A stretch of DNA of 64,000 nt, taken from assembly GCA_951804945.1 (NCBI GenBank), contig OX638154.1:44764001-44828000 (forward strand), given 5' to 3'. Every line of letters starts with the position of its first letter. Position 1 is the first letter of the stretch. This document shows, piece by piece, positions 5,401 to 37,012 of this stretch. The notes under the pieces are model-generated. The model did no database searches and was not told the origin of the DNA. It worked only from the letters and a program-made list of their open reading frames with translations. This DNA is from Podarcis cretensis. Taxonomy: Eukaryota. Both the position numbers and the translations under genes were made by a program.

Positions 5401-8400
5401 GAACATGCAATCCATGAGTTTATCAGCCTTAGTCCGTGCCAACTGCGCTATGTGGTAGTCCTCTCATATTGCATGGGACATTATTAGCGGCTTGCAGACC
5501 TGTTGCCATTAAGCACTGTAGGAAGAGCACAAGATGGTGACAGGACATGGATACTAAGTCTTTCAGCTCCAAGGATACTTCCGCTTTCACCCTTTTCTCT
5601 AGAATTGCCATTTAATTAATTTTTTAATAAGATGCTGTTGTTCCAGGTTGTCCAACATACGCAGAGAAAGTGCTTATTAAAGCAAGAGGTCATTGAGTTG
5701 TTTTACAGCAGACAAAGAGCCTTGCTTACTCCTAGGTCTCCGGGCTTCTTCCTCCTACTCACCTCTACAGGAAGCTTCTTCTTCAAGTACTCCCCCTTCG
5801 ACCCAGGAACTAATCATATACACAGTCATTTAGCCTGCATGAAAAGCCTGACAAGCGGAGCAGAGCTTGAAAGAGAGTTGGGCAAGCAAGTTACCTCATA
5901 GTAGGCCCAGAAGCCTGCCTCACGGGTGTAAGGGCCAGCAGAGCCAGCCCCAGAGACAGGTGCACAAACACCTGTATCTGATGAAGTAAGCCTGAAAGTG
6001 CGCCCATAGGTGGGGAATCCCATAAGCAGCTTTTGAGCTGGGACACCATTGTCCTTCCAGTATTGCATGGCATAATCCTGAGGAAAAGGGGAAGGGTGGA
6101 ATTAGGACTCAGTACATTCATCTGTCTCGTGAAAAACACACAATAATAGCATTTCCAGGATCAGGAGGCTTTACTTACACAGTTGAAATACCTTAAATCA
6201 CCCTGGTCTTTGGATCCCACATACAATGGGCTGTTGTGTCCTGTGCAGGTATCCCAACCACCATGGAAGTCATATGTCATTACACTGATGAAATCTAAAA
6301 GTCTGGAATAAATCAAACAAAACCATTGCTATAGCTAGTACATGGTTTCTTATAGACCACCGTGTCTTAAGCAGTGAGCTGGGGACTACCAGTGGGCCTC
6401 GGACCACTTTTAGGTGGGCCTCAGTGCCACAGTACCTCCTCATTTTCCCACCTTGTGCCCCTGTCCCCTTAGCTATGCTGTAGTTTTTGGCTGGGCCAGT
6501 GCCAACACCTGCAGGTCCTCACACAGTGGTCAGGAGACAGGTGGAAAAGGAGACAGGAGACAGGAGGAAAAGGAGGTCTCCCTCCTCTGTGGGGATAGGG
6601 CAAGAGGAGGTGCTGAAGACAGAAGACTAATATTTACAGAAAAATAAATAAACTAGGAACAGAGAAGCGGATAAGAGAGGAGGAAGTAAATGTAAAAGGG
6701 GTAGAGAGGAAAGGTGAAAGAAACTCACAGTTTGGAGAAGAATGGGGTACAAGTGAAATGTAATAGAAAAGTGGGAGAAGAGATGGCAACACAAGAGTAA
6801 AAAAAAATACTTTGAGCAGCATGTGGGCAAGCAGAAGGGAAAATATAAAATAAAAAGCTGTCTTCACTCAGCACTTCTGGATTAGCAGATTCAGCCCGAA
6901 ATGAGGACTCCAAGTCACAAAACCTCCAGAGCTGATGTCTATACTTAGCTCGAAGAAGGCTGAACTATGGAATTCCTTGCCACAAGAAAATAATTGTGGA
7001 GAAGAGTTTATCAATTTCAAGAGAGTGATTAGATATCAGCAGAAAATGGTGTTGATATTTGCCAGCTTACTAGGCCAAGCTCCACCACCAATATGTGACT
7101 GGTTCTGGCTCTGAGCCAAGGTGGGCCTTGGTAGTTTTCAGTTATCTCAAGTGATGCCCTGGGGTAAAAAATATGAGAACCCCTGTCATGGAGTAATGAC
7201 ATAAGAAACGCTGGAAAATCCAATACCAGGCTATGGTATGACTCTATAATCTTCCTAGGTTTTCATCAGTGACACTGGTACTTAACTGCACAAAATGGAA
7301 ATTCTACCACTGATTTAGGAGCAGAGTTGAAATCCTCATTTGAGCTTCCTCGTACTTACTGTCCTATTGCAGCAATTTCATATCCAGCATCAATGGTCCC
7401 TTTGCCAGCAGAAACTGCTGCTGTGATCAAAAGCCTTTTCCCATTACATTTACCATTCTCAAAGGCAGCCAGCATTTCCTATGGAGACGTACAGGATTGA
7501 GAATCATGTCAAACCTTACTGTTGTTTCTCATGAGTATCTGTTATTCACGCATTTCTATAGGAGACATTGAAACAGCCCCAAATTTGTTAACATGTTACA
7601 TAAATTTATGGTTATTTCACCAGCCACCTTATTGGCATGTATGTCTTTTTTTTAAGTTGTCAAACACCACTTTGACCTACAGACATCTTGTACGTAAATG
7701 TTAGAACATTCCACACTATTAGCTTGTTGAACATTTGTTGCATTCATTCCAGTGCATTCATTCCAGTACATTTCCCTGCACTGGAAATATAATATTTTTG
7801 CACCTGGGGGAAAAAATGGGTTTCTTACCCCAAGACCTGCTTCCATTCCTTTTCTGAATTGTGAGTGAAACATAACAGTGCAAGAGCCATACCTATTGAT
7901 TTATTGATTTATTTTTGCACAATTACTGATGAGCAACACAACTACCCACGTAAACCAATTTGTGAACTTTTTTTAGAGCTACTGTTATTTAAAATGACAG
8001 GGCCTTGTGGGACTTCTCTTCCTCCATCTATCTTCTCCTGTCACTATGTGAGCAGGACTGGGGAGGAAAGGCCTAGAGCCATTTGAGAACCCATCACAGG
8101 CCACAGCCAGCTCAGAGGTCAGAAGTTCCCCACTCCTGCCTTAAAGATTAACAGACTAGTGTCCTATGGTGCTACTGAACTCTCTTCCATTGTTTTCTGC
8201 AAGTGACCAACATACCCCCCCATTAAAGTCATTATTATTACTAAGTTACTGGTCATGCCCTATTGCTTATATTTCAGCTGCTGCTGCTGCTATTCTTTTA
8301 AATCCTTGGAGGAAGAGTGTCACCTGCTGTACAGTGTGCAGCTCTGGTGTAGCAGTGCCAATCTAACAGTTGTGTTGTTTAAAGTGACAAAAGCCAGAAA

Positions 8401-10080
8401 GGCTACAAAATATTATGCCAAAAATATTTTGTCCCAATCATTTAAGCTTTCATGCAGTACATAGTACATAGCGTAGTGAATAACTGCACATAAACTTTAT
8501 GTACAACTGTAAGACATAAGGAAAGTGTGGTTTCAAAGGGGTTTGGGGAATCAAACATTACTGCTGATTTTCTGAAGCACAGATTGTGGGGGATTATCAA
8601 AACTAGTGTGTTGATTTCTCACCCGAATCAGGATTGTGAAGCGCTGCTTGTCTTCGGGAGGACTTCCCCTTGATCCTGGGTATTCAAAGTCCAGGTCAAT
8701 CCCATCAAACCCAAACTTACAAAGATATTCAATCACTGAGTCAATGAAGATTTTACGATTGGTAGCTGAGGCAACCATTTCAGTGAACCTAAGAAGAGGG
8801 AATTCTTAGATAGTTTCCCACATGCCCTTGCATGCCATTTAGATATAATTCCCTTTTTATTAAACAAAATATATTATCCTGTTTAATGCATGTATGCTCT
8901 CTTTTGTAACCGATATCACACATACTCCCATAATTAGGAGTATGTATAAAACACAATCACACAGTGAAAGATTAGTAGCGGATGCACAATTTACACCCTA
9001 AGAATTGCGGCAAACTTCTTCCCTTACTTAATGCATGCTGCTTTGTACTTTATAAACTTTATCACAACCATGATGGAGCCACTTCTCCAAGACCATCTCC
9101 CACACAGCTCAAGTAATGTTTAAATGGCCCAACCACTGGTCAGAGGTCTGATCATATAAATCTTTCCCATGTAACCGGCATTCCGGCATTCCTTCCTGGC
9201 AAAGCATTGATTCCTTGGCTGGAGTCTGTGCAATCAGTCCCCACTCATAGGGTTGAGTCCTTTAAATGTTGCTCTAGTCATGCAGAAGCTGCCCATGGGC
9301 AAGCGGCTTAGGAAACATTTAAGAGGAACCCAATAGAAGTATGACAGTTTGGACATTGCCTCATGCTCAGAAGCCAGAAGGAAGGCTAAGTAGGACAGGT
9401 CAAGCAGAGGGAGTTCCCAGTACCCTGGATAGCTCCTCTGGTTCGCCATATCAGATTACGTTGTGCAAATGAAAGAAATATATGCAAATATGCCCATTTT
9501 GTAATAATTTATACAGAACTCAGAATTATTGGCATAGAACTAGATTATCGTAGCACAAAATTGTGATTTGTTGCATTTGTGTTTTTATTTAGAACACAGC
9601 ATACACAGTTCTGCAGGTATCATATCAATCATCATCATTTTTATTGACCCTATTCCTAGTTAACAAGGTCACTGGAACCCCTCATCAAAAGTTGCTTTTA
9701 CCCTGTTGGAGTGGTTTGTTATCACAACCCATACCTTATTCCTCAACCAGTGTCACAATTTAATTTCAGATCATTGCTTGTCCATAGCTATCACTCTGGC
9801 CAGAACCTTACGTCTGCTTGCGTTTCAAATGCTCAACAGGAACACACTCTATGGGTTCAGAGTCTTAATACTGTCACAGTTTAGTATGTATGTGGAAAGG
9901 ATACTCACTTCTGTGTGCCAAAATTCCAACCTCCAATAGCTAGCAGTGTGACAAGATTGGGGTTGCTGTAAAACATGTAAGAGAATATCAGTCTAGAAAC
10001 TTGCATGGTGATTCCAGAGTCAAAAGTGAAATGTTAAAGGAATGTTGAAATGCTGAATAAAAACCAAGGCACAAAGTAAC

Positions 10081-10131
<51 letters not shown>

Positions 10132-12381
10132 TGTTATTTCAAGATCTCTTGCAACAATTTCTTGAAATTGAAATTTTAAAAAAGGATCCATGTTACATGC
10201 TTGTACAAATAGACAGGGTTTCTTCAGATGACCTATTGATTCATCTTGATTTGCTTGCATGAAGCTTACATAGTAATTAGACTATGGGCCTCTCCAAATG
10301 TGTTTGTTATTGTGCATTCGTGATTATTTGTGCTCACGTTTGCATCAAAACAGTTATATGTGATTCCGTCTTCAATACTATTTGTGCCTCCATACATGGA
10401 AAATCGTGTTTGGAAAATCACCCGTTTTCACTTCATTCTGGAGAAAGAAAATACTGACCTGTTCTTAAGTGCTTGAAATTCAGGGAAGAGCCTGTCCTCA
10501 TCATTCCATTCATAAGGGGCAATCTTATGTTGATTCATAGTGGCAAAGGCATATATCAAATGAGTACAGAGATTTGGATCAATGTTGTTTGGGAAGTATT
10601 TGGCCGGCTCTGGCCTATACTGAGACCAGTTGGTGAAATAGCACACTAGTTTGTAGGCAGAACCTGAAAAGGGGTGAAACCAAGATGAGCAACATTTGCA
10701 GGGCTCATTTTCATTCTTGCTGTCATTGTGCCTTATACAACTATGCTATAAAAACTATTCTAGCTAGTAAAATAGCCACTCGCTGCAAATTAGCCCTTAT
10801 TGGGCATCTCCCACATCCACCTCCCACTGCCCACTGCCCACACAGGGAAGGTGTCTGTAAAAGGGGACCTCCTTGTGCATATTAGCTCTCCCTGCTCAGA
10901 GTTCCAAAACAGGGAGAGTTTGTGCATGTATACCAGGCTCTCCTTTACAGATGTCTGTCTCCCTCCCCTCCAAAAAAATCGCATGGATTGGCAGAAGGGC
11001 TACTTTGTTTCAGAACTGGAGGGTTTCAACGTGTTGTTCAAAGTTGGAAAAATACATGCACAGGGAGCCTTTATATTTTCCTCAGTGGGTGGGAAAATAG
11101 CTAGGGACAACTATTTTCAAGGATGAACAGGTGGAAGGGTTAAACATCCCCTTTTCCCACCATGTCATAGCTGTCAATGTTTCCCTTTTTTAAGGGAAAT
11201 TCCCTTATTCTGAATAGGATTCCTCGCAAGAAAAGGCAAACGTTGACAGCTATGCACCATGTGTCCCATGCAAGACTGTGCTGTGATTTTTTAAAAAAAT
11301 GAACAACTGGAGGAAATAATCACATATAGCTTGAAATAATTCCACCATCTTTCAGGGAAGTCTAGTTTGCTTCTCACTGATCCTACCGAGATTACAAAGT
11401 TGTTTCCCTATGGCATCCTCATGCCAAAATATCTATAAACTATACTTTTAAAGAGCTTTATCCCTTCCAGACACCTTAATGCTATAATAGTCATTTGTTA
11501 CCTAAGCAGTCATATTCACTGTGTGACCCCTTGTGGACTATAACAGCATAGAGAATATGGCTGGTTTAAATACTCTGCCTCACTAGAAAGCCACCCTTAC
11601 TTTAGTCTCATTAACCATATACGGAAAGTTTCTCACCAAGCTGCAGCTGCAGCAGAACTGCCAAACCTGCAAAAGAAAAGCAAACGTGTTAGAAAAAGAT
11701 TAAAAAATTTTCATCAGTATGTAGAAATAGAGTTGAATCAAAATGGAGGGGCCATGCTTCACACAATGCACCACCTGTGCGATGAACCAGCACCACCCTA
11801 TACCCATTTTTGGGGTTATTTTGGGGGTTCTGCCACAAGGCAGAACAGAACAGTTCACCAAAAGCATTGCCTTCACTCTGATTTGGCTTTGTAAGATCAC
11901 TGTGTAGTCAAACCCAACTGATTACGTGGCATCACCAAGAAGCCTGAGTTTCCAACCCTCACTCTGATTTGGCTTCATGGCATCATCACATAGCTATATT
12001 TAACAGACTGAATGATGACATGATGAGATAGTGTTATCTAAGTGTTTTCTAAGTAGATTCTGACTACCTGGGATCACCTCAGGAAGATGCCTTCTATCAA
12101 AAATATTGGAGAAACCCCACTCTCAGTAGCTCCACATTTCCCCCATACATTTTATGTTGGAACAAATTTGGCATAACTCTAATAAAAAGAGTTCCAAAGC
12201 ATGTGACAGCATTTTGAACATTATTGCTCATTCTTAGAAGACAACACTGTGAAACCTGTTCTAGAACACATTCACCTTTTAAGACCAACTCTGTAGGAAA
12301 TCTCTGTCATCCTAACAATTGTAGTAGGAAGATTGAAAACTGCAAGGTATACTCACCAAAGCACAACAGACCCTTCCCCAT
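2453..12381 (-). CDS. CHIA: Acidic-mammalian-chitinase-like GH18 chitinase, canonical single catalytic domain (signal peptide, GH18, Thr/Pro linker, CBM14), 11 coding exons, 481 aa
   Basis: Exons (minus strand): 12357-12381, 11637-11666, 10459-10663, 9909-9965, 8623-8788, 7360-7478, 6179-6302, 5895-6077, 4737-4853, 4394-4529, 2453-2736. All introns GT-AG, phases consistent, total 1446 nt. N-terminus [21 protein letters not shown]|[10 protein letters not shown]; motifs [20 protein letters not shown] (DxDxE intact), [20 protein letters not shown]; C-terminal 6-Cys CBM14 FCANQPDG...CKCCNYP*. The symbol is family-level only; exact orthology among CHIA paralogues is not determined. Confidence 0.93.
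10081..10129. repeat. (TTA)n microsatellite
   Basis: About 16 perfect units in chitinase intron 3. Confidence 0.95.
11166..11254. mobile_element. Very small (89 bp) hAT-like MITE
   Basis: TIRs CATAGCTGTCAA / TTGACAGCTATG; perfect 8-bp TSD CACCATGT (11158-11165, 11255-11262). Confidence 0.8.
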
Positions 12382-19195: not shown

Positions 19196-22100
19196 TTAAT
19201 TCAGTGGCCAGTTGCAACACTTACAACTTTCATCAAAGACCAGGCCAGCTGCACAAGACATGGGGAATGTTGCAGTTCCAGCACAAATGTAGAATTTATT
19301 GGGATCGACTGGATTAACATACATGCCATCAGCTTTGTTTGCACAAAATTCTGTTCCAGGAGGAGTGGTGGGAGCATCTGGATCAGGTGTGGTTGTAGGC
19401 CCCGGAGTAGTAATAGGTTCAGGAGTGGTTGATGGTATTATGATGCTTCCTGGGTCACCACAAACTGAAAGAAACATGCAAAATCAGGAATCAGACATTT
19501 GCTTTCATCCACCAATAACTTCTTCCTAGAACTATTATAGTCTACGAGTATAAAAACCACCTGCTTTAGGAAGGAGGAATAGTAGTGAGCTGCACTTTCC
19601 ATAATGGGAAATATCATTACTCTCACATAATGTATGTGACTGGGTGTCAGAGCATTATATAATATGTTTGTATAAAATATCATGGAGGCAAAGCTTATTA
19701 TCCTGTATAAATTATTTTCTAATAAAATTCAGACACTCTGTATACAATGAGATTCATTTTGCTAAATAATGTTTTAAGCCATGCAGCAGCAACTGGGCAT
19801 TCAAAATAATGGATGCTCTAAAAGGAGCTTCTCACTCTGCTAGCTTGGTGGTTTAACACTAAACTAGAAATGTAAAAGCAATATTCCCCAAAATGAAGTA
19901 CAGTTGAACCTTGTTTTTTGAGCGTCTCGGAAGATGAACGTTTCGGTTTCTGAACGCCCGAAAACCTGGAAGTAATTGCTTCCATTTTCGAACGCACCTC
20001 GGAAGTCAAACAGCTTCCAAGGCACATTTCTCAATTTTCACCATTGAAATTGCCAACTGCCCTTTGTGCCTCACTTGTCAAATGTTTCAGAAGTCGAATG
20101 GTCTTCCAGAACAGATTACATTCGACAACCAAAGTTCCACTGTACTATGTTGTGTATGATTTGGTGTGATGGTCCATAGAAGCAAATGCCATGTGAAGTG
20201 ACTGTGCCTTTTTTGCCATACGCCCTGGTGAAAATCAACACAGTTGACTTTTAAGGAATGCATGCACTGCAATAAGTTCATCTGCTTCTTCCTTCATTTA
20301 AATAGCGCACACTAAGACATCGCGTGGCGAGATGAGCTTTTAAACACCATGTGCTGGTTCCAAAACATTTGCCACTAGGCTGGTTTGGACAATGAATGTG
20401 CATCTTTCCCATTACTGAAACATAGCTGCAAAGAGTCAGGTGTGGAATCTAAACAACTGTTTGGCTTTTGATAACTCCCCCACCTCCAATGATCCTTTGG
20501 TACCATCTTACCTTTGCCTGCAAGTAGGTTCTTCAGCTCATTTATGAGAGGGTAAGGTCCTTCACCACAGAATGAGCCACTGAAGTCATCCAGGTCAATA
20601 GCCCATACCATGCCACCACCAAATTTGTTGTCCTTCACAAACTGGGTCTATAAACAAAAAGGATAATGCTTTATGGCAAGCTCTGCTCCCAAGCAAGCAG
20701 TGAAAATTGTTGAGAAAAACCCACTAATTCAACACCAGTATGGCACCAGGAAAACTACCAAACAGGCTACTTGGCAAAATTACATCAGCCATTAATCTAG
20801 TCTTGATGTTTGTATCCTGAATGTTTGTGGGTTGGTCTACGTAGCCAACCAAGGCCACATTCACACTGCACCTTTAAAGCGCTATGATTCCCCTTTAAAT
20901 AGTCATGGCTTCCCACAAAGAATTCTGGGAGCTGTAGTTTATTAAGGGTACTGAGCATTGTTTGGAGACCCCTCTTCCCCTCCCAGAGCTCCAATCTCTC
21001 TTCACAGGGAACTCTGGGGATTGTAATTCTGTGATTGGAACAGGGGTCTCCTAACAACCCTCCGTGCCCTTAACAAACTACAGTTCCCAGAATTCCTTGG
21101 GAGGAGCCATAACTGTTTAAAGTGGTATCACAGGGCTGTAAATGGATGAATTACCATAATCCCTGGCCATGTGCCATGCTGGTTGATGGGAGTCCAACCC
21201 ACAATGGCTATTCCTGGTCTGCAATATGCAACTCCATTCTTCACTGCTGATGCCCTCTAAACATTCTGCCAGTCATGTGTAAACAGCTTCGTTTCCCCAC
21301 AGCTGGGAGAACATTTAAAGGACCCAACCATATGGGGGTATAAATGTTTTTCTAAGCAAGCAGCACCCACAGCACAATGTAGATTCCATGGGAAAAACAT
21401 GTGCAATAAAACCCTGCCCACATGGTTGAGTCATTTTATGTTATGGTTTTATTGTGTATTTCAGTGTATGATATAAATAAATCATTATACTTCAATTCCG
21501 CACTCTGAATAAACAAATAGTTGAGTAAACAAATAGCTCCTAAATGGCTGGGACAACATCTAAAGGTCACTTAGATCTGTAAATGAGAAATGGCAACTCC
21601 TGTGTTCAAATTATGCAACACAGGCATTCAGTACAGCACTGTGGGTAATAAGGCAGCATAAAATAAAAGGTCATAGTCAACAAAGGCAGCCTTACTTTGC
21701 ATCCATAGCTTTTTTTGTTGTCAAATCCAACCCACTCAGAACCTTTGTAAGCATAGGGAACACATTGGTCTTCAATCCATTTCACTGTAGCATCCCTTAT
21801 AAAGGTACAGATCTGCAAGCACAGTACGGTATTAATAGATTAATGGATTTGAATCAGATTAATCTGGTGGAACATGAAATTAAAGTCACAACAGAGAAGT
21901 TATTTGGTTTTAAATTATCTAATTCATGGAAACCACAGAAACAGAACTTTCTGTCCCAGTTAAGAGAGGAACACAGCAGACATCGCTGTTGACTTTTGGA
22001 GATGGAGGGCTACAGCCTTTGCAGGATGCCCTTGCAGGAACAATATGACTGCACCATAAAAGCTGCTTTGCAGACTAAGCAGCTGTTGTAAAAGTGGAGG

Positions 22101-25100
22101 TTTGAATTCCCCTACAGATTTGTTGTGTGGGTAAAACTACTCTGATATATGCAGATACCAAAATATTAGAAATTCAGCAAATAACCTCACACAACCGTAG
22201 TAACAGCTGCTAAGAAAAATTGTAATTTATCCAAATCCAGAAGGCAAGTAGAAAGACAGCATGATATTTATTTTGTAGCGTAATGTTGTCAAAATATTTC
22301 AGTGTGTTAGGTTCAAGATTTTGAAGGCACTTGTATATAAAATAATTTTGGCTCATTTGGTTTATATATTCTGGAAAAAAATATGAGAATGGCAGCAAAC
22401 CATGTGCAGTGCAGTCCTAAAGTATAGTTATGATGCAGCTTAATTCTTAGTAAGCGGGCATAAGATTGTAACTGTATTAGAGTGCAATTCTATATTCAGA
22501 AGCATGCTCCACTGAATTCAATAGGACTTATTCGCAGACAGGTAAGCATACATAGGACTGTAACCTGTTACCGGAAAAATCTGAGGGCTCCCTTGGACAA
22601 AAAGTAAAGACACCAACCAGAGTAAATTGGAGCAAATCAGCAGCCTGTAGGCTTGGTCTTTATTGAAGAAAGACTGTCGCGACAGGGTGCTCCCCTCACT
22701 TGCAGGTGAGAGGAAAGACACAGAAGAATAGTGTGCAAGGTCTTATAAAAACTTTTGAAATTCCCCTCCTCTAGGTCTAGCCCAGCCCCAGAAACATCAT
22801 GCATACATTACAGAAAGGAGGGGTTGAGGGAGGAGTTGTGGTGGTAACATCATGCATACATTACAGAAAGGAGGGATTGAGGGAGGAGTTGGTGGTAACC
22901 TGAGTGTCTTGTCACCTGGCTGGTTCCTCCTTTCCCCCTCCCCATGAGTCACTTCCAGGAACTTCCAGAAGACAAAGGGGAGTTTGCAGTTTCCTGCCCC
23001 CTGAGGGAAGATCTGATCAGTGTCCTTTGTTTCAGTCCATGCTGAATCCACTCCCATATGCAAGTTCTTTGTGATCTTGATTGTCTTCTGTCTGGGACCA
23101 TCAGGGTTGGCATAGCAACTGGGCAGGGCACCTGTGTATGTGCTGGGATGCTGAAGGGATTATGGCTGCCCTGTATCAAGTCTGCCCCATTTTGTAGTCT
23201 TTCCTTCATGGAGTAAAATAAAAGTGGAACAGTGCAAATCCAATGTATGGTTGATTTTCTATGAATTTATAACAGAAGCATAGCGTATGTAGTGCGTGAG
23301 TGTGAGTGTGTGTGAAGTTTGTACAAACAGAATGATTGGGGTGGGGGGGTTCCTGCTACAACCTAAAAGGCATCTTGCCCTAGGACTTCTCCAGCATCTT
23401 ACCTCATAGTAAGCCCAGAAACCAGCTTCACGGGTGTATGGTCCAGAAGAGCCAGCCCCAGAAGCAGGAGCACCCACTGATGTATCACTGGTAGTAAGCC
23501 TAAAGGTACGTCCATAGGTGGGAAATCCCATCATAAGCTTCCCAGCAGGAACACCATTGTCTCTCCAGTATTTCATGGCAAACTCCTGCAAATATGACAG
23601 TGTGAATTAACCTCACAATCGTTGTTTACCAACACTGTTACCGGGAAATTGGAATGGGGGTGAGAGACCTCCCCGCCCCACACAGCAACATCTACAACAT
23701 CTACAATCTACAAAGGCATTGCATCTGCAAGGGAAGCTCAGCTCAATTTGCAGAAGGAGCCTGCGACTCGCCTCTGAGCCCCAGGTCTCCAACAAAGGAA
23801 AACAGGGGAAGTGTCAGTACTAAATGTAGCAATTCACTTGATAAATGTATCTACGTACTGGCTCAATGGGAAGACTTTAGAAATTCATAAGAAATCACTC
23901 ATATCAATCTTCTCAGTTACAATGGCATTTAAAGGTAAAGGTAAAGGTACCCCTGCCCGTACGGGCCAGTCTTGACAGACTCTGGGGTTGTGCGCCCATC
24001 TCACTTAAGAGGCCAGGGGCCAGCGCTGTCCGGAGACACTTCCGGGTCACGTGGCCAGCGTGACATCGCTGCTCTGGCGAGCCAGAGCCGCACACGGAAA
24101 CGCCGTTTACCTTCCCGCTGGTAAGCGGTCCCTATTTATCTACTTGCACCCGGAGGTGCTTTCGAACTGCTAGGTTGGCAGGCGCTGGGACCGAGCAGCG
24201 GGAGCGCACCCCGCCGCAGGGATTCGAACCGCCGACCTTTCGATCGGCAAGCCCTAGGCGCTGAGGCTTTAACCCACAGCGCCACCTGCGTCCCTGGCTA
24301 CAATGGCATTTAGGACCCAGGAAAGTGAGGTATAAGGGGAGGGGTGTATGAGCCAACCATAATCCCCAAGAGATGTACAGTCATGTTTGCAGGGCCAGAC
24401 AGATAACCATCTCAATCACAATGCCTACCCACCCCATAGTGGGATGAAGCCCGGACAAGACAAAGGGCTGTATTTGACTTGACTTGGCAACCAGGGAACT
24501 GTAAATACTTTCCTTTGTACTGTGATGGAGTAAGTGTGAAAGACTATATTTGAGTGACATGGGCATGCCTGGATCTCACAATCTACCGAAGACCACACCT
24601 TTTCTGTGACATATCCATGATGTCTTGATGATGCATCCTGAGATGTATTATGGGAAACTTTGGGAAACTTTAAAATACTGGTGTAACCATTGTTCGGGGC
24701 TTCTGGCTGCTTCGTCTTTGTGGTAGTGGGAAGTCTTGTTGCAACGATAAAGATCAGGCCTACAGGCCACTGTTTTGCTTCTATCTCCTATAGCTAAAGT
24801 CTCATGTTTGTGACACCTGACCTGAACCTATGGGAGTCAAAGTTAGGCAGTTGTGGGGTTCTCCAAGGACTCCATGTTACAACACAAAGCAACCCGCTAA
24901 AGAAAATAAACCGTGCTTTATATTCTTACACAGTTGAAATATCTGAAGTCTCCAATATCAGCTGAACCAATGTACAGTGGGCTGTTGTGGCCTGTAAAGG
25001 TGTCCCAGCCACCATGGAAATCATAGGTCATCACGCTAATAAAATCCAGATGTCTGAAATGAAAAGTGCAGTTTAGAATTAGGCTGATTCAAACAACCAA

Positions 25101-28100
25101 GTCTAGGTAGGTTTTGTTATGTGGAGGTTCCGCACCCAGCACAGAGTGAAATAAACTTTTCACATCAGCATATTTTTGCAATGAAAACGTTTTTCAGAAC
25201 CTTATCAACCTCACCTGCAAGGGACCATGGGTCTGAGAGACCATCAGTCAGAATGTGGGGTAAAAAGCAAGTCAAAAGTCAGTCAAGGCCAAACTCTATG
25301 TGATGCTTATGTCTTTTCTGGCCTTGCCCAGAGGCTGCTGTGGTGGGGACTGAGAGTGAGAACCATGGTAGGGGACCATGCTTCTAACTGTAAAAAGCCC
25401 CCCTTCTGCACTTGCTATTCACAATGGAAGGAAAGCTCTCCCATTGACATCAAGGATGAAGGAGGGCAATTCTGATTGGGATTATGGTGGTTGCAAATTG
25501 TTAAAAACACCTTCCTGCCTGCCTTCACTTCATGGTCTTGATCTGGAGGGGGCGGAGGGCAGTATGCCTTAAAAAAATCAGCCATGTGAGGCCAAACAAT
25601 GCAACAAGTCTCGCAGGATGTTTGGCCTTTGGTACTCATTTCCAGTTGGCAGTCTCAGCTCTGGCAGCATGTGAAGCAATAATTGGAAAGGGAGTACACC
25701 TCTGTATGTAGCTTCCTTTAGCATCAAGTGATAAGGTTTACAGGCCATAGGACTGAAATTCCAAGCAGGCTTGATCAATTAAGCATTACTATAACTGCAT
25801 TTAACAAAGCTCTTTTTTTCTCTCCACTTACTTCCCTATTTCTTCAATTTCATATCCAGCATCAATGGTCGGTTTACCGGCAGAGACAGCTGCTGTCACC
25901 AACAACCTGTTGTTCCCAGTCTCTTTGGCCTCTTGGTCAAAAGCTGCTACCATTTCCTAAAGGAAGAGAATGAACTATTATCCCAGCCTTTTGTTAAGAA
26001 ACAGTCCTATTTCTACAGGTCTCTACAAACCTCTTCTGAGCAGCAAAGCTTTCTTCCCCAACTGCGAAGCCTGACCAGCCGGATTGCTGAACTTACTGAT
26101 CTCATACCTGGATCAGGATAGTGAAACGATGCTTGTCCTCAGGGGGGCTACCCCTAGAACCTGGATATTCGAAGTCCAGATCAATCCCATCAAAGCCAAA
26201 TTTGCGGAGGTATGCTATAACTGAGTTTATGAAAGTCTTGCGGTTGGCTGCAGTGGAGACCATGGTAGTGAATCTGAAGGAAACAAAAGCAACAGTGGAG
26301 TCTGGCAGCACCTTCTTAAAAGAGCATTCCTAGGCAAGAGTATAGCCTACCTTCATCCAATTTACCAAGGTACAGTTCTGCACCTCTGTTTTTCTTGCAT
26401 CTGTTGCTAGTATCTTTCCTTTTCTTTTGTTTTTTGTCAGCCAATCCAACTGCACATTGCTTTACAGACTATTTTTTTCTGTTCCTCAGCTTTGTTTTCT
26501 TGCTTTCTTTGCTTTATGCAGTTGAGATACTTCCATTATCAGCCACAGTCCTACCCTCAGTTATATGACATTTAGCTTTGCATAAATCTGTGTTTGGGTT
26601 TGTTCCCCCCCCACACACACACACCCTACATCTTGGTCTGCAGCACCTTGCAAGAGAGGGTGGAAGGCCAAACTTTCCTTATCTCTTCATGCTACCTGAA
26701 AGTGGAGAGTGGGGAAGGAAAGGCCAGAATGCATCTGAGGAAAGAATGGACTAACATCTCCCATGGATATCCCCGGTCTGGTCTGGTCAACATATGCAGT
26801 AAAAGAAGAGGGAAAGAGCCCTGAGGTGGTAAAATGGGCTGTACCATTTCAGTCTGGAGAGGAGGGTTGCTTTCAAATTTTTAGTGCACTTTGTGTTAAG
26901 AGTTTTCTTCAAGTACAAAGGATAGAACACTAAGATGCAGGCTAAACCATAATCTGTCTCTCATGTATTTTTAATCTGGAAAGGAACATTTTTAAAGTGG
27001 CATTATTGATCTGCAGCCTGAAATGGTACAGTCCATTATGCGCTTCAGGACTGTACCACCTCAATTTACTACAAATACAGACCAGGCATCTGCCTCCATT
27101 CCTGCCTTCCATCTCCTAAGGAAGGAATAAGAAAGCAGCAAACCCTGAATGTAAATATACAGCTGTCTATAGCTGGGTGCACATTATACCTTTAAAGAAC
27201 GCTCTTTCCCTCAAAGAACTCTGGGTACCATAATTTGTTAAGGGTGGCTGGGAATTGTCACTCCATGAAACGTAAACCACAGTGCCCAGAATTCTTTGAG
27301 GGAAAGAATTTGTTTCAAATGTGCTTTAAGTGTGTGATGTATACACAGTCGTGGGCACTGTCACATCTAAGAAGGAAGTGACTGAATTAGGCATGTCAGA
27401 GAATAGCTCTCCCGTCTCCTTGCACTTGCCATTCTCAGTCTCTTACTCTCCTGTTACAAAAAGTACAGAGAGGTCAAACAGACCTGGAATCTTGAGGGAG
27501 GGCATCCCAGATGGCACTGCTTAGCTTACAGGAGTCTGATTCCACTCACAGTCTGTCAGTTGTCAAATACTATCATGTTCAACAGTTGTATGCTGATTAC
27601 CACTCATGTTTCCAAAGTTATAGAGAAAACTTACTTCTGTGTACCAAAGTTCCACCCTCCAATAGCCAGCAATGTCACCAAGGCAGAATTTCTGTGAAAA
27701 GGAAATATATATATATAAACAAAAACTGAAAACAGATTTGATGTAGAAAATATACAGATATTGTTCTTGTTAAAACTAAGCTGCTCACTATTTATATCTT
27801 CTGCCTGCCAAAATTTCCCGCTGACTTCTACTTAATGCTTATATAAAGTCAAGTTTACATTACGGAACAAGTTCTTTCTTTATGAGGTCTACTGCTACCA
27901 ATGTATCATTATCACCAGATCAGATGGCACATCTGCAATATCTGTACAGTGGTACCTCGGGTTACATACTCTTCAGGTTACAGACGCTTCAGGTCTGTAA
28001 CCTGAACCAACCCAGAAATATTACCTCGGGTTAAGAACTTTGCTTCAGGATGAGAACAGAAATCGTACGGCGGCAGCAGGAGGCCCCATTAGCCAAAGTG

Positions 28101-31100
28101 GTGCTTCAGGTTAAGAACAGTTTCAGGTTAAGAACAGGCCTCCAGAATGAATTAAGTTCTTAACCCGAGGTACCACTGTATCAGTTTATGCTAGAGAAAT
28201 GTCTGGTGGACCCACAGCTTCTGTATCAGCTGCTAGAACAGCTCAGAAGCATCTTACAAAAAGTTAAGCACCTCTTTTACCCACATCACAGTTACATCTT
28301 AATGTTGTTTCTAAGAAAAAGCTGACCTCTGCTTTAGCGCTTGGAACTCTGGGAAGAGCCTGTCCTCGTCATTCCACTCATAAGGAGCAATCTTATTGTC
28401 GTTCATAGTTGCAAACGCATACATGAGGTGAGTGCAAAGATGTGGGTCCACGTTGTTTGGAAAGTACTTGGCTGGTTCAGGGCGGTACTGAGCCCAATTG
28501 GTGAAATAGCACACAACTTTGCAGGAATGGCCTGGTGAGAAAATGGAGATGGTGCCATTGTTGACACAAAGTCATGTTCAGAGTTCATTCAGTCATTATC
28601 CTCTAAAAGCGTGTCTGGACTGAGGATTTTTAAGCGGCAGACATAACAATTATGCAATCTTTCCTAGCTCTAAAGACAGTCCAGGGGCTCTAGTAGGAGT
28701 GGGGGCTACAGCACAAAATCCCAGAGCTAGTTTGTCACACAACTTTGAGATATCATTCCACAAGCCTACCATTTCCAATTTAAAGCTATAGTTCAGTGAT
28801 GGGGAACCAATATTGTTTCTGAAATAATACATGAACCCAAACACAGCTATCCTTCAAATTTCACATTTATCCAAGTTTTTTGATGCAGTTCTCCAATCAA
28901 GCGAAGTTTACTAGGGTTGCCATATTTCAGTGTTGAGCTTTTTTCAGTTCTGCCCAAAGTTGTTAAGCTTTTTTGCCAAAGTTGTTGAGCTTTTGTGGAT
29001 TCTTTTTTCAAATTTCTGTCTGGACACTGTTGCCGACTGCAGTATTCAAGATAAGGGAACCCTATGTTTACGAAACTGCATGTATGTTGGGAAAGATATA
29101 TAAAAATGAAGATATGCATAAAAATGAAGGTATTAATAAAAATAAATTAGTTAAAAATGCATTATATTAGGGGAAATGGCTTGCGAAAATGTGTTTATGA
29201 ACTGTCTATTAAAAATGTATTTATTAGGAGAAATTTGTATGAAAATGCTGGTGAATTTTCATGTGGTTTTTTTTTTTATTGCAAATTGCTGCAAAATGTA
29301 GGGAACTGAATCTAAGATAGGAAAAATGAGAAGCAAAGAGAACCTTCCTTTCCCTACTTATGGTCAACCTTTTGGAGAGTGGAGCCAGAAACCAAAGTGT
29401 GCAGATGTGTTCAAAGTGGCAAATGTTGGCAGAATATTATGCCAGAACATCACCTAGACAACTAAAATACAGATATCATATTAAATACATTTTGAGTGTT
29501 TATGTCTCTCCATTTATACATGTTTTTCACACACACACACGCGCACACACACATGCACAAATAAAATTGTGGACATATTTTATCACATCTTCACAATCAC
29601 TTGCTAGGCCACCAGAAGCCAGTTTAAAAATTGTTCCAGCCCATGAGCTGCTCCATCCCTACATCTTCCTACACCGCTAACTGTAACTTTTGTCCACAGC
29701 AAACTCACCATCCTCATCGGGATTTTCACTTGGCTTAGGAGTTGTTTCATCAGGAACCTGAGTAGTGGTTTCTTCAGGAGGTGGTGTTACGTCATCAGGA
29801 AGAGTAGTAGTTTCATCAGGAGGTATGGTGGGAGGATCAACAGTTGGAACATCACCACAGCCTAACAATAAGAAGTGCAGATGTTCAGAAAGGCATGTGG
29901 AAATCGCGAGTGCATTTAATATGTATTTTGACTTATGTGGCTTCTTTGACAATACTGAATTTGTTCAGTATTTTAAGCTGTCAGTAATATCTTATTGCTC
30001 TACTGACCTTTTGAGAAATACATTTAAGCTCCTGTTTTGATGGGAAATGGAATTTAATCTTTAAAAAATAATTACTCTGAGATTCACCTGAGACCTCTGA
30101 TCTAGGTTCACTACTGGTGTACATCATTGGATGGGCAAGCAGTAGGTTACATTTTTATTGCTAAAAAAGACCAAAGTAGCTTGCTGTTCCATAAGAACGA
30201 AACCTGATGTTGGAAGCTACAAAATCTGCACTTGGTCACAAGATAGAGGGCAGGAGGCAATAGCAAACTTAATTTGTATAGACAAAGGACCTACAAATTG
30301 GATACTATGCGGGAATTTGTTGCCAGATTAGCTAACAACCGAGGAAAGTCTCTGACATTGTCCCAGTGAGCCTCAATTGAGTGTAAAGGTAAAGGGACCC
30401 CTGACCATTAGGTCCAGTCGTGGCCAACTCTGGGGCTGGGGCGCTCATCTCGCTTTATTGGCCGAGGGAGCTGGTGTACAGCTTCCGGGTCATGTGGCCA
30501 GCATGACTAAGCTGCTTCTGGCAAACCAGAGCAGCACACGGAAACGCCGTTAGCCAGGTACAAATCAAATGACATGGGGGAGAACTTCATCAGTTCACAT
30601 TCTGCACTGAAGTCCCTTTGATACATGCTAGGGAATCAGATTTGCTGGAATTTTCCCACTGGCTACATACATACATACATACATACATACATACCTACCC
30701 ACCCAAGGAAGGAATGTCACACTGTTGTAAATAGGGCCACCTTGTATTTGGAGAGCCCGTGGAGGATCCTGCTTCACACACAGTGGAGCGCAAGATGGCC
30801 TTTGATGCTACATTTAGATGCCTTACCTCCTGCAAGGAGACTCTTCAGTTTGTTTATTAATGGGTAGGCTCCTTCACCACAGAATCCACCACTGAAGTCG
30901 TCCAAATCAATTGCCCATACCATGGCACCCCCAAACTTATTATCCTTCACAAACTGGGCCTGCAAGAGAATCATCATCAGCATCAGCATCATCATATTCC
31001 CATGATGCCATTTTCACATCAGGAGGAAGCTTCAGTTGCATCGGGCCTCTTCTTGTGCTATTCATATTACCATCTGACTTGTATTTCATTTAGTTGCTTT

Positions 31101-34100
31101 TTAAAACATTCATGCCCCACCCTTAAAAAGACCACTCGGGGCAGTTTTCAGCATATAACATTACAATTTCACGAAACAATATGGAATAATGCACACACAG
31201 AAATGGTATCTGCTTGTACATGGAACTCATTGGTTTTCCACACACTGAATCTTTGGAAGGGGAAGTCTTGCATGGAAGAAGTCACTTACATTACAACATG
31301 CAAATTGTGATAGCACAAAACATGACAGAATACACAAAGTTGAGAATGCTGATAACGATGTCTGTGACAAACCAAATGTAAGGGGGAAAGCTGTATGCAA
31401 AAAGGGTTCTTACTTTGTACTCATAACTCTTGGCATTGTCAAAGCCAACCCATTCGTTCCCTTTGGAGGCATATGGCACCTTCTGGTCTTCAATCCAACT
31501 AACCGTGGCATCTCTTATGAATGTGCAGATCTGCCAAAATATTATGATATTAGCAAGAGGACAAAATGAAGAAGTAGAATGGTCATGTCAAGAAAACAAT
31601 GACACTCATTGTGCTTAGAAATTACCACATGGTTAAGAGGCTTAGGATCATACCTGCAGCAGCTCTGCCTGTCACTTGCAGAAGAGGGCTCCTTTGTGAA
31701 TTTACTTGTATCTTTTAAATGTAATTGTACTCAATTGGTATTCAATTTGATTAGCCTCCTATTATAATAAATTTGCATAGGAGCCTATGCTTGTACCCAA
31801 AGATGCATAGGCTTCTCTACACATGCAGTCTGAACCTTCCATTTTGGCAGTTTATGGATTGTTTTTAGGGTACCTGTCTTTCCTGTGCAATCATTTCAAC
31901 TGTGTGGGGAGTGGCCAGTGGGCTGGCCACCTGTTCATAAGAACCCAGGAAGCTGCTTTATGTGCCCTTCTGAGATAGCTCAGTTGACACAGCATGAGAC
32001 TCTTAAGCGCAGGCTCGTGGGTTCAAGTCCGACCTTGCGCAAAAGATTCCTGCATTCCAGGTTGGACTAGACAACCCTTGTGGTCCTTTCCAACTCTACA
32101 ATTCTATGATTCTAAGTCCCACCATTCATCTATCTAGCTCAGTACCGTCTGCACCAATTGGTGGCAGCAGCTCCAGGAATACAAACGGGGGTGTCCTTCT
32201 GTAGCCCTATCTGGCAATGCCGGGGATTGAATCTGGGACAATCTGCATGCAAAGCAGATTCTCTGCCACTGAGCTACAGCCTTTTGTCATGAATATGCAT
32301 TAATACTTACCCAGAATGAATGCATTCGTGCATGGAATTGATGGCAGGCATTAATACTCATTCAATGAAGAAACAACCTGAATTTTCCTCACATCATTAC
32401 CTCATAGTAGGCCCAGAACCCAGCTTCTCTAGTATAAGGTCCAGAAGAGCCAGCCCCAGAAGCAGGAGCACCCACAGATGTATCACTGGTAGTAAGCCTG
32501 AAAGTGCGTCCATAGGTGGGAAATCCCATAAGAAGCTTGTTAGCTGGAACACCATTGTCTCTCCAGTATTTCATTGCAAACTCCTGTTTTGGGAAAAAAA
32601 GAATATGATATGGAGGGGGTTGTGGGATTTAATATCTGTCTTATTCTATGGGAGTTGGTCAAATCTATTCTCCATCTCCTTACACAGTTGAAATACTTTA
32701 AGTCACCCTGGTCTTTGGATCCCACATGCAATGGACTGTTGTGGCCTGTGAAGGTGTCCCAGCCGCCATGGAAGTCATATGTCATCACACTGATGAAATC
32801 CAGGAGCCTGGAGGAAGTTGCACAAGAAGCAGAGTTAACAGCCAACATTCTGACACAGGCACTAGGAGTGTATCTAAGAGAAGCCAAAGTCAGAGAAGGG
32901 GGCTATTATGAAGAAAATGCATGTTTTCATTTACTTACTTTCCTATTGCGGCTATTTCGTACCCAGCGTCAATGGTTCCTTTCCCTGCAGACACAGCTGC
33001 TGTGATTAGCAGTCTGGGGCGACCTGTGCTGGCAGCCTCAGCTGTAAAGGCCTCCAACATTTCCTAAAGAGGGAGGAGGAACTATTAGTGAATACCTATT
33101 AGCGGAGCAAGAGCAAACACGTGCCATTTTTTTCTGGAACTAGGCAGCTGTGGTCATTTTAATTTCCTACAATGCATTGCATCAATGTGGGGCACTGATG
33201 CAAATTAAAATGACAGTGCCCAAACAGTAGGATGCCTAGGCACCCTAAACGTGGAGTCAGACATGCCTATTAGAAGGTCATTTGTCTTTCTGACCATGAG
33301 GTTAAATGACCATTCTAAAACTGACAATGGTATCAGAGATCTCAGTCAAGAGTACCAATTTATCAGGGATTCTCTCAGTAACTAAGTCAGAAAGCTGAGC
33401 TAGTCCAGCGTCTTGCCTTTCATCTCAAGAGATCCATCTGAAAGGCCAGAGCCTAAGCTTATAATCTGGTCTGCCTCATACTGATCTAGCTTTATATCTG
33501 TGCCATTTAGCAGCAAAGTTCCTCTTCACATGTTCAGCAATTGCCAGATTCTAATGTATATTTTCCCCCCTTTGTGATACTGAGAGGAAAACATTTTAGC
33601 TCTGAAAATGGTAACAATATATCCCAAACATTAATCTGTTTTTAATCTGCAAAGATCAGCAACATGCTGATTAACACAATCCCGAAAAATGCTGGGTTTC
33701 TGTTATTTCCAAGACAGGGTTGGATAAGCAACTTTAGGGGGAACCTTGTATATAAGTTGAGGTTCTTGGTATATAGCCCATTTAGGGGCAGAAACAACTC
33801 AACAGCATATATCATCCATTCTACTTATGAGATTTCTATGTTTGTTAAAAGCTTTCAGTAGGCTAAGCTAGCTATGGAAGTATACTAGATCTGTGAGAGA
33901 ATGCTGGGCTGGTACCTCACCTGAATCAAGATGGTAAACCGTTGCTTATCTTCAGGGGGGCTGCCTCTAGAGCCTGGGTACTCAAAGTCCAAGTCAATCC
34001 CATCAAAATTAAATTTGCGGAGATATGCTATCACTGAATCAATGAAGGTCTTTCGGTTGGCAGCTGTGGCGACCATTGTGGTGAATCTAAAAGGAACAGA

Positions 34101-37012
34101 TCTCATTCTTAGTATTGCATTTTTAATGTGGTACTAAGGAAAACTTACTTTAAGGTAAAAATGCCTCCCTTAGAGAATGTATGAACACTTGCAAGAACAT
34201 GTTCGCAAATAAATTAATACTTAGCTCTAGCCCTGCCTTTTCGTACAGACTACTTAATTTCTCTTTATTGCTGTGAATTTTCAGAATTTCTAACATCTGC
34301 TAGAGCTTAGTGTGGTTTCTAACCATCTGGTTGATTCATAATTTGAACTCTTTGTCAGTGTAGAGGTAAATAAACAAAAGCCGTTCTCACTTCTGAGTGC
34401 CGAAATTCCACCCTCCGATAGCCAACAGCTGAACCAGTTCGGAATTCCTAAAAGGCACAGAATATATTAATATATTAAAGTGAATAGAGAAACGTTTTAA
34501 AGATATAGGTTTATACACTCAAGACAGTATTATACACAACAGTACAGCACCATTCCCTGTGCAATTATGTATTTATGCGGCACATGCATCAATCGGATGA
34601 ATCTAACCCAAAGGAGTTGCATTTAGGCCCCACTGAAACCAACTAACTTTTCACACATTTATTTCTATAGGACCTAAGTGTGTCTAACTTTAGTTGGATC
34701 CAACCCAATGCTTATTTCTTTATCACATTTGTATCTTCCCTTTCTTACAAGAAGCCCAAAGCAGCTTACATGGAATTATCCTATTTTATTTCTACTAACA
34801 ACAGTGTTGGTCAAGCTAAAATGTGGGGATTTGCCCAAGACCAATTGGTAAGTAACATGGACTGAATGAATATTTAAACCCAAACCAACTTCCATGTGCT
34901 ATTCACTTCACCCGAGTGTGCAAAATTATTGCATACATTGGAGAAAGAGGGCAAGGAGGTTGTTTTCCTCTTCTCTCATAATACTAGAACCAAAGAATCT
35001 AAGTGTTGGGAGACACAAGATGGAAAAAAGGAAATCCTCCTTCACACAGTTGCTACTTCAAGATACAGTGATGGCCACCAACCCAGAGACCTTTAAATTC
35101 ATGATGAATAAGGCTAGTCACAGTGTTTCATTGCTGCCTCCAGGATCAGTGGCAGTATGTCTCTAAATACTAGTTGATGGGGAACACAAGTGGAGAGAAT
35201 GCTATTGTGCTCATGTCCTTTCCATGGGCATCTGGTTGGTCAATGTGAGGACAGAATGTATACTTTTGACCTGATCTACAGGGGCTCGTGTTCATTCACT
35301 CTACCATGGACTGTTAATGCCTTTCAGTAAAACTCTTCAAACTTCTAGTTAGTATATTAGTATTAGCATGCGAAGAACCATCTTAGTATGAATTCACATC
35401 CATTCTCTAGTTCAGGCATAGGCAAACTCCGGCCCTCCAGATGTTTGGGACTACAATTCCCATCTTCCCTGGCTAACAGGAAGGACCAGTGGTCAGGGAT
35501 GATGGGAATTGTAGTCCCAAACATCTGGAGGGCCAGAGTTTGCCTATGCCTGCTCTAGTTGATGCAATCAGAGTTAAGGAATTGTGGGCCTAATATTATA
35601 AACCAATCGCAGTGCACGGCAAATATTATATTGCAGCTAGAAGCAAAGTTCCTAAATAATAGCTAGTGATGGCATGGCAAAAGCTGATGTAATGCACAGC
35701 AGCAAGCGAAGACTGAAGCAGCTGACATCACCACATTAGCTGAAATGTGTCATGTGAAGGGACACTGTTCAGAAGAATTCCTATCACCCTGGCACATAAA
35801 TTGACAGTTACGTGGCCCTAAACAGACATCCATATGTGAAATGTTGCTCTGCGGTTTTGCATTGCTGCTTACTTTTGCTTCAGTGCAGTAAACTCTGGGA
35901 AGAGCCTGTCTTCATCATTCCATTCATAAGGGGCAATCTTATTTTCATTCATCGTAGCGAAAGCATAGATCAGGTGGGTGCAGAGTTGTGGGTCCACATT
36001 GTTTGGGAAGTATTTGGCTGGCTCTGGCCTATACTGAGCCCAGTTGGTGAAATAGCATACAAGTTTGCATGCCGAGCCTGATCAGAAGAAACAAAACAAT
36101 GAAGCAGCTGTTTAAAATACTCATTACATCTCATTTTTTAATTAAAATCCCTTCCCAACCGTATATTTATATGCCAGGTAAGCATGCAAGGACTGTGTAG
36201 GAAGCAAGAACAAAACCCCTACGGGACAAACTTTTGGAAAGATGGGATGTGGCTATTTTAATTTGTACCATTTTGCCAAAAGTCTTCGTCACTCAGGCAA
36301 ATTTTGCATGAAGCAAGATGATAAATTGTCGAGTGAGGGAGAAGACTTGGAGTATATATATACAACCAGGAGTGCCAACTTGAATAAAATATGGGGGGGG
36401 CACTGGTTAATTTGAGTTAAATAGCAGTTCTGATTATTTGTAAATATTTCTTTCACATGGAATTCCCAGGATTCTTGATGGCTTACCATATAAATTATCC
36501 CTTTTTTACCTTTGAAATGACTCTAAAGTAATGAGACATGTCTACCTGGGATGGCTAAGGTAGAAGGAAAGTAAATCTGAGCTTCTCAAGTCTGAAATTC
36601 AGTTGACAGCACCATGCTGGGTAGAGTATGTTTTATCGCTTTTTAAAATTATTATTAATATTCTGTTGGGAGCCTACCAGAGTGGCTAGGGAAACCCAGC
36701 CAGATGGGCAGGGAATTAATTAATTAATTAATTAATTGCATCTTCTGCACACACACGCACACACAAAAACACACTACTCATCCCTAGTTAAGGAATGGAA
36801 TAAGTACTTACTGATTTGCAACTGCAGCAAAACAGCCAAACCTGCAAAGAACAGAGAAGAGAGTCCAAAGTAATGGAAAAATTGCGCAGTGTAGCTTAAC
36901 AAAGCACCATTCTTGGTGTCTGTGAAAAGAAATCCCACCTTACAAACCTTAAGAGAGACAGTCTACAAAATATTATAAATGACTCACCGACCCACAGCAG
37001 CACCTTCCCCAT
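19196..37012 (-). CDS. CHIA-like chitinase with two tandem GH18 catalytic domains (SP, GH18a, acidic linker, GH18b, linker, CBM14), 20 coding exons, 899 aa
   Basis: Exons: 36988-37012, 36812-36841, 35873-36077, 34391-34447, 33921-34086, 32939-33063, 32684-32807, 32401-32583, 31414-31530, 30827-30959, linker 29709-29861, 28327-28531, 27635-27691, 26108-26273, 25832-25956, 24930-25053, 23403-23585, 21696-21812, 20512-20647, 19196-19464. Total 2700 nt, open throughout, all GT-AG. Only one ATG/signal-peptide exon pair ([21 protein letters not shown]) and only one CBM14/stop exon. Chitinase identity is near certain; the single-transcript model is inferred from splice signals. Confidence 0.85.
19901..20142. 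mobile_element. Tc1/mariner (Tigger-like) MITE
   Basis: TA|CAGTTGAACC ... GTTCCACTG|TA, imperfect TIRs with TA TSD. Confidence 0.65.
20855..21145. mobile_element. Palindromic MITE-like repeat (related copy at about 27170-27345)
   Basis: Long imperfect inverted arms GAATTCTGGGAGCTGTAGTTT / AAACTACAGTTCCCAGAATTC. Confidence 0.55.
22793..22898. repeat. Tandem duplication of an approximately 53-bp unit
   Basis: AACATCATGCATACATTACAGAAAGGAGGG(G/A)TTGAGGGAGGAGTTG... occurs twice, inside an LTR-like segment starting at about 22566. Confidence 0.8.
23932..24298 (-). mobile_element. Full-length young Sauria SINE
   Basis: tRNA-like head (GGGACGCAGGTGGCGC...GGTTCGAATCC), (ACCTTT)n tail, 14-bp TSD TACAATGGCATTTA. 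Confidence 0.9.
27947..28178. mobile_element. Tigger-like MITE
   Basis: TIRs CAGTGGTACCTCGGGTTA / TAACCCGAGGTACCACTG with TA TSD. Confidence 0.85.
29709..29861 (-). other. Phase 1-1 inter-domain linker exon (153 nt), acidic and Pro/Thr-rich
   Basis: Acceptor cttcttattgttag|GC and donor GATG|gtgagt. Encodes [51 protein letters not shown](G). No CBM14 cysteines follow. Confidence 0.88.
30384..30552 (-). mobile_element. 5'-truncated Sauria SINE
   Basis: Reverse complement of the 3' half of the copies at 38541 and 57001, with an ACCTTT tail. Confidence 0.8.
31972..32113 (+). mobile_element. tRNA-Lys-derived SINE with CR1-like 3' tail
   Basis: TAGCTCAG...GAGACTCTTAA...GGTTCAAGTCC head followed by GGTTGGACTAGA...TTCCAAC...(ATTCTATG)n. 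Homologous to 58681-59300. Confidence 0.7.
35413..35552. mobile_element. hAT-like palindromic MITE
   Basis: Near-perfect hairpin CAGGCATAGGCAAACT ... AGTTTGCCTATGCCTG; 8-bp TSD CTCTAGTT. Confidence 0.88.

Follow-up and report, generated by a model that had tools for sequence, protein, structure and literature searches.

A spliced in-frame chitinase gene fusion in Podarcis cretensis and a likely seven-codon remnant of the lost chitin-binding domain at its splice donor

The window analyzed here, a 64-kb stretch of Podarcis cretensis DNA, carries three chitinase catalytic modules on its minus strand, designated A, B, and C. All three contain DGIDLDFE, and the catalytic motif of GH18 chitinases is DxxDxDxE. 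The catalytic part of module C lies at 10663-4394 (minus strand), while the exons of A and B, when joined by their coordinates (Table 1), yield one 2700-nt frame of 899 aa with the order signal, GH18, linker, GH18, linker, CBM14. This 899-aa product is 97% identical to a Lacerta agilis model; Pfam recognized two GH18 domains plus CBM_14 on the protein of a relative (P0265), and the CBM14 of B in the window matches Podarcis models. Signal exons 1 and 2 are present for A and C. In the window, no copy of exon 1 or 2 was detected between the linker exon and B (best matches of 17/31 and 20/38, vs 25 of 31 and 29 of 38 for true paralogues), and the downstream partner B stands there without 5′ exons of its own. 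We predict a secreted, presumably active chitinase in which two intact catalytic domains share one chitin-binding domain. Minus-strand exons at ~44277-46328 belong to a neighboring, putatively TAF8-like gene.

Table 1. Features of the fused gene and of paralogue C in the 64-kb window, in order of transcription of the minus strand
Feature	Position	Strand	Remark
Exon 1 of fused gene, start of signal peptide	36988..37012	(−)	
Exon 2 of fused gene, remainder of signal peptide	36812..36841	(−)	
Module A, GH18 catalytic exons 3-10, DGIDLDFE motif intact	30827..36077	(−)	
Linker exon, 153 nt, phase 1-1, Pro/Thr/Asp/Glu-rich	29709..29861	(−)	Both joints seen in contigs
Fusion intron, 1177 nt, GT..AG	28532..29708	(−)	
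Likely CBM14-start remnant, seven codons, G-E-F-A-V-D-K in read-through, overlaps donor	29689..29709	(−)	
Splice donor GTGAGT used for fusion	29703..29708	(−)	Joint 29709->28531, GT..AG, run X17
S-Y-S-stop, would terminate the unspliced read-through form	29677..29688	(−)	
Later motif chain (GCTGGAAC, TGGCCT, TTGTGAAGATGTG), chance-level	29584..29640	(−)	
Module B, GH18 catalytic exons 3-10, DGIDLDFE motif intact	20512..28531	(−)	
Terminal exon: linker, intact CBM14, and stop	19196..19464	(−)	
Paralogue C, separate, single-domain, with its own exons 1-2 and CBM14	2453..12381	(−)	Control

The fusion intron harbors one or more high-copy repeated elements at 28814-29330, which contain both of its AATAAA hexamers (29280 and 29225). 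An origin of this intron in the second intron of either A or C, and the presence in it of an old 3′ UTR, were considered and rejected as unconvincing (z of −0.1 to 2.3 in four tests). Beyond the window, at least eight intact CBM14 terminal exons, four per strand, occur in a 143-kb cluster (G000:C6:44640783-44783357). A 5′-truncated copy of the B CBM14 and 3′ UTR is found at L010:1497-1700 (G000:C13, ~6737123); it ends just past AATAAA, contains an internal stop, has Ala where B in the window has Thr, and is likely a retro-fragment of the fused-gene mRNA.

Sequencing runs from close relatives provided evidence for splicing of the fused gene. That X15, X17, X18, and X20 are RNA is our guess; no run is on record as RNA. 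The DNA run X14 left most of 29486-29653 without coverage. A 586-nt contig of depth 916 from run X17 of a relative joins 29709 to 28531 with GT..AG intron ends, and its loose end reads by eye as module A exon 10; this joint was listed in one of the three guessed-RNA runs on that stretch. Because there is a single 899-residue frame, signal exons are missing ahead of the second module, and the X17 contig contains the joint, we conclude that the fusion is real, with the upstream linker exon spliced in frame to the downstream catalytic exons. An earlier sequence-only reading of this locus had proposed such a capture of downstream catalytic exons by the upstream gene, and the X17 contig supports the splice. 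In addition, a depth-4 contig from run X15 contains the exon 10-linker joint and continues 51 nt beyond the donor, to 29658, across the read-through stop, and may stem from incompletely spliced RNA or from a short isoform. The linker exon occupies the place expected for terminal exon 11, in agreement with the proposal that it is the old terminal exon, and would correspond to the 5′ part of the former terminal exon of module A.

The fusion donor reads G|GTGAGT, with 29709 as the last exon base. Reading through it gives G-EFAVDK, which had been likened to the CBM14 start G-TEFCANK. When the sequence behind the linker was scored against an anchored DNA profile of eight paralogous CBM14s, the score was maximal at nt 21 (p = 0.046), and no signal was added beyond that point (p = 0.58-1.0). 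At the protein level, the match of the same stub to a CBM14 profile (157 distinct CBM14s from 177 of 272 proteins, with A tails left out) was marginal (p = 0.016, and 0.084 after shuffling behind G-E-F). The G-E of the stub is forced by the donor consensus: the window has three more G|GTGAG donors, and these give G-E-S, G-E-Y, and G-E-K. Of 177 intact CBM14s, just 2 begin with G-[EK]-F-C, so the E/K at this position may owe its presence to the donor and not to inheritance. The intronic stretch has a stop at codon 11 and Ala in place of the first CBM14 Cys, and it gave no Pfam CBM_14 match at E ≤ 10; it is thus not a CBM14 in the sense of an open frame of ~50 residues with six Cys.

Further evidence came from relatives. 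A search with the linker recovered one protein among 179 candidates, i.e., the Lacerta fusion, and further fused models were obtained from the Lacerta cluster and by a junction search. The fused junction was found in models from Lacerta, Zootoca, three Podarcis species, Salvator, and Hemicordylus, where the linker leads into G-H-[SP]-C-K. An assembled protein of 838 aa, which falls with the skink, has the same joint. Two split models, both automatic and considered at the protein level, read through the donor position: that of the skink Tiliqua ends in G-E-F-D-V-D-Q-S, while that of tuatara continues as G-K-F-C-V-D-K-A-G-E-G-Q-Y-S-N-T-E-V-D-M-V-R-H. Open over its 23 residues, the tuatara tail represents a broken CBM14 that keeps F-C-x-x-K-A and G-x-Y-x-N-x-E, and it matched the CBM14 profile over positions 2-16 (p = 0.0013 with random DNA behind a fixed donor, p = 0.0007 with shuffling; HMM E-value of 1.2e-4 for one comparison). 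The corresponding values for the skink tail were p = 0.095 and 1.0, and Pfam reported no CBM_14 on either tail at E ≤ 10. The sequence-only reading had pointed to relatives as a possible source of a better-preserved remnant, and the tuatara tail, at the orthologous place, matches the CBM14 start as such a remnant would (p ~ 0.001, in protein models only).

The stub in the window shares F-x-V-D-K/Q with both the skink and tuatara read-throughs (4/6 positions each), a degree of sharing reached in 28 and 29 of 200,000 null draws, respectively. Taking the tuatara tail as a broken CBM14 start and the window stub as the homologue of that tail, we conclude that the 21 nt at 29709-29689 are likely what is left of the beginning of the CBM14 that the first gene lost. 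Accordingly, the likeness of G-EFAVDK to a CBM14 start, marginal when judged from the window alone, holds up for these 21 nt through the relatives, and the better-kept tuatara read-through places the donor precisely at the Gly codon that opens a G-[EK]-F-C start, as expected if it arose at the linker/CBM boundary.

It could be argued that the resemblance is entirely donor consensus and that the donor came from elsewhere, e.g., from the downstream exon-2 donor via a deletion, with no CBM14 left. The G-E reading of the three other window donors and the marginal score of the window stub speak for this explanation. We consider it very improbable, however, because the tuatara tail retains both CBM14 patterns (p ~ 0.001), the window shares F, V, D, and K with it, and the fusion intron shows no alignment with the second intron of either A or C (at the 3′ end, z of 0.7 and 1.5; the only matches are TG repeats). 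We favor, with good confidence, the reading in which the linker exon is spliced to the second module, the 21 nt at and behind the donor are likely the start of the lost CBM14, and the motifs farther downstream are at the level of chance.

Those later motifs had been taken to extend the fossil to ~130 nt roughly collinear with CBM14. Their presence and spacing were confirmed at 29640-29584: GCTGGAAC occurs 66 nt past GAG TTT in the intron (69 nt in the intact exon), TGGCCT lies at 29611-29606, and TTGTGAAGATGTG follows at 29596-29584. To hold the chain together, three deletions (3, 6, and 6 nt) are needed, each of which preserves the frame. Collinearity over this length did not withstand testing, with the chain at shuffle level in nearly every test. 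Specifically, when 29709-29540 was aligned at the DNA level with both window CBM14s (six scoring schemes × two targets), z varied from −1.24 to 1.62 relative to 1000 dinucleotide shuffles, and 0 of 12 alignments reached p < 0.05; the positive control, B vs C CBM14, gave z values of 12-32. An nhmmer profile built from the eight intact paralogous CBM14s found in this genome had no match in the fusion intron at E ≤ 100, and the same profile picked up a real, degenerate copy elsewhere, on a different contig (E 8e-20). The collinear word chain (p = 0.24-0.46), frame-0 protein profiles over codons 8-50 (three profiles, p = 0.29-0.41), and a three-frame HMM search of the intronic stretch for CBM14 were likewise null. 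Two borderline results favored the chain. Taken alone, the 8-mer gave p = 0.02-0.03 when allowed ±3 nt around the diagonal and p = 0.17 in a ±20-nt band with either target. A best-of-eight paralogue match (L008, p = 0.04) was discarded, as improved nulls weakened it to 0.07-0.08 and it lay on another diagonal.

The final two letters of GCTGGAAC match a Thr codon of B, and this Thr is found in 3/3 Podarcis B sequences and in 0/7 others, which have Ala or Gly. Because this Thr is confined to Podarcis, it is younger than the A/B split and cannot be shared by descent; the match of GCTGGAAC to CBM14 is partly coincidental. In simulations, the power of the pairwise test was 0.55-0.98 at 0.3-0.4 substitutions/site and dropped to 0.04-0.55 at 0.55-0.75 substitutions/site, so that the null result is compatible with descent at the higher divergence. 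Similarly, a longer fossil need not be visible, given that the A-B paralogous introns fail to align in 7/7 cases and that four-fold sites of A and B show 0.74 differences/site.

A reading of all 130 nt as decayed CBM14 in the proposed alignment (A-G-T...G-L...C, frame 0) is consistent with an 8-mer only 3 nt off the diagonal, with implied deletions that are all multiples of 3 and keep frame 0, with a real upstream anchor in the stub, and with the low power of the pairwise test at the higher divergence. We nevertheless regard it as quite unlikely, since no pairwise test was significant even though power would be considerable at 0.3-0.4 substitutions/site, profile tests past codon 7 gave p = 0.29-1.0, and the Thr in GCTGGAAC postdates the A/B split. 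Over the length of a CBM14 domain, no alignment above shuffles was obtained.

To date the duplication and the fusion, we relied on a module tree for which 57 of 272 proteins were chosen; nine were dropped by domain pattern, and the remaining 48 gave 57 domain rows. In this quick search (SH-aLRT only, without bootstrap), A modules (92) and B modules (99) each formed a clade, A and B were sisters (92) apart from the C-type genes, and tuatara was the first branch in both the A and B clades. Since each clade includes tuatara, the duplication is older than the tuatara-squamate split (~250 million years) and, by this tree, predates squamates. Similarity among exons is uneven: exon 8 of A (32583-32401) is 90% identical to that of B (23585-23403), exon 7 of A (32807-32684) is 89% identical to that of C (6302-6179), and other exons are 65-83% identical, which suggests exon-wise gene conversion that can distort the tree.

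The fusion probably predates squamates as well, i.e., it would have preceded the lizard-tuatara split. In tuatara, fusion is suggested by module B, the exon of which begins G-Y-P-C-K (compare squamate G-H-[SP]-C-K) and which lacks signal exons in 4/4 models; this absence carries less weight because 2/4 tuatara A models lack them too. The lacertid framing of the sequence-only reading was, therefore, too shallow: the junction also occurs in teiid, cordylid, and skink sequences and probably in tuatara, and other lacertids could not settle the origin of an event that is not lacertid-specific. Among the matches listed (cluster representatives and at most 15 members), none was an unfused orthologue of module A that has kept its CBM14 intact, a negative of little weight given this sampling. 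In a Rhineura floridana model (P0006), signal exons lead to the last 13 residues of the linker and then to module B, with the module A catalytic exons lost or skipped and the fusion donor kept. Models from Podarcis lilfordi and Hemicordylus (P0009, P0016, and P0259-P0261) continue into gene C via exon 2 and contain three GH18 domains; these are probably annotation merges. No A- or B-type module was seen in gecko, iguanian, anguimorph, turtle, or crocodilian proteins (305 proteins, a thin sample), and the fused gene may have been lost in several squamate groups.

The order of events is less firmly constrained. A reversed order, in which the stub is a CBM14 remnant as above but the domain was first lost through a stop or frameshift, with donor and fusion following later and possibly in squamates only, would pass through an intermediate in which the upstream gene worked as an enzyme without a binding domain. 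The tuatara annotation consists of two separate models, our searches yielded no fused protein from this species, and the 23-residue tuatara tail is open and broken, all as this order would have it. Set against this are the G-Y-P-C-K start of tuatara B, its missing signal exons in 4/4 models, and the fit of G-K-F to a G|GTAAGT donor (deduced from protein), and we consider the reversed order possible but unlikely.

In the order we favor, with the donor arising before the CBM14 decayed, a tandem chitinase duplication would have occurred in a lepidosaur ancestor, after which the codons for G-x-F with which the upstream CBM14 begins would have changed to G|GTRAGT, creating a new donor. With this donor, the former terminal exon would have been cut where linker and CBM meet, in phase 1; as the downstream exon-3 acceptor has this phase too, the reading frame is preserved across the joint. 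The bypassed CBM14 and the signal exons of the downstream gene would then have decayed. Under assumed branch lengths, the probability that the stub survived neutrally in all three lineages is 0.002-0.05, a mild hint that splicing or a read-through product has constrained its retention. A bolder version of this scenario, which we put forward tentatively and consider possible but unlikely, is that a double-catalytic digestive chitinase arose once before the tuatara-squamate split through a donor on CBM14 start codons, and that the stub has been selected as the end of a second product without a binding domain, made by read-through and intronic polyadenylation. The retention of the stub, the X15 contig extending beyond the stop, and the Tiliqua model ending there are hints of such a short product. 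If this is true, one locus would switch between a one-headed enzyme for soluble substrates and a two-headed chitin-binding enzyme.

Among the closest known systems is vertebrate acidic chitinase (CHIA/AMCase-like, PF00704 + PF01607), which likewise has signal exons 1-2, eight catalytic exons, and a terminal linker + CBM14 exon; the catalytic motif is likewise intact, and the source names are 'acidic mammalian chitinase-like'. Unlike CHIA, the lizard gene has two catalytic domains in one frame, the first without a CBM14 and the second without signal exons. Two 899-aa lacertid models, XP_033008598.1 (97% identity) and XP_034977983.1, represent the same fused protein with the same junction; they are automatic annotations that leave its origin undescribed, and the orthologues of tuatara and Tiliqua are annotated as split.

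Two GH18 domains in one polypeptide are also found in the insect group III chitinase OfChtIII, in which, according to the abstract, the domains are non-synergistic and a role in chitin synthesis has been proposed (PMC5786006). The lizard modules nest among vertebrate chitinases in our tree, which argues for independent origins of the two architectures. Opossum gene models with two GH18 domains have been reported as well (PMC1945033); these are unverified marsupial predictions, and the available portion of that paper mentions no reptile, junction, or remnant. The accessible text of PMC5955627 does not contain 'reptil', and lizards appear only in the reference list in the portion of PMC13673647 available. 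A tandem reptile chitinase was in no title or abstract found by our literature search, while Hussain and Wilson 2013 may discuss reptile GH18. Thus, lacertid fusions are already known as automatic annotations, and no description of the fusion was found in the literature searched.

If our reading is correct, a vertebrate gene fusion of great age still shows at the codon level where and how it came about, and current tuatara and skink annotations divide one gene into two. Lepidosaurs would then possess a CHIA-like enzyme with two catalytic domains, and the lizard enzyme would allow the synergy of tandem GH18 domains on insect cuticle to be tested in a vertebrate.
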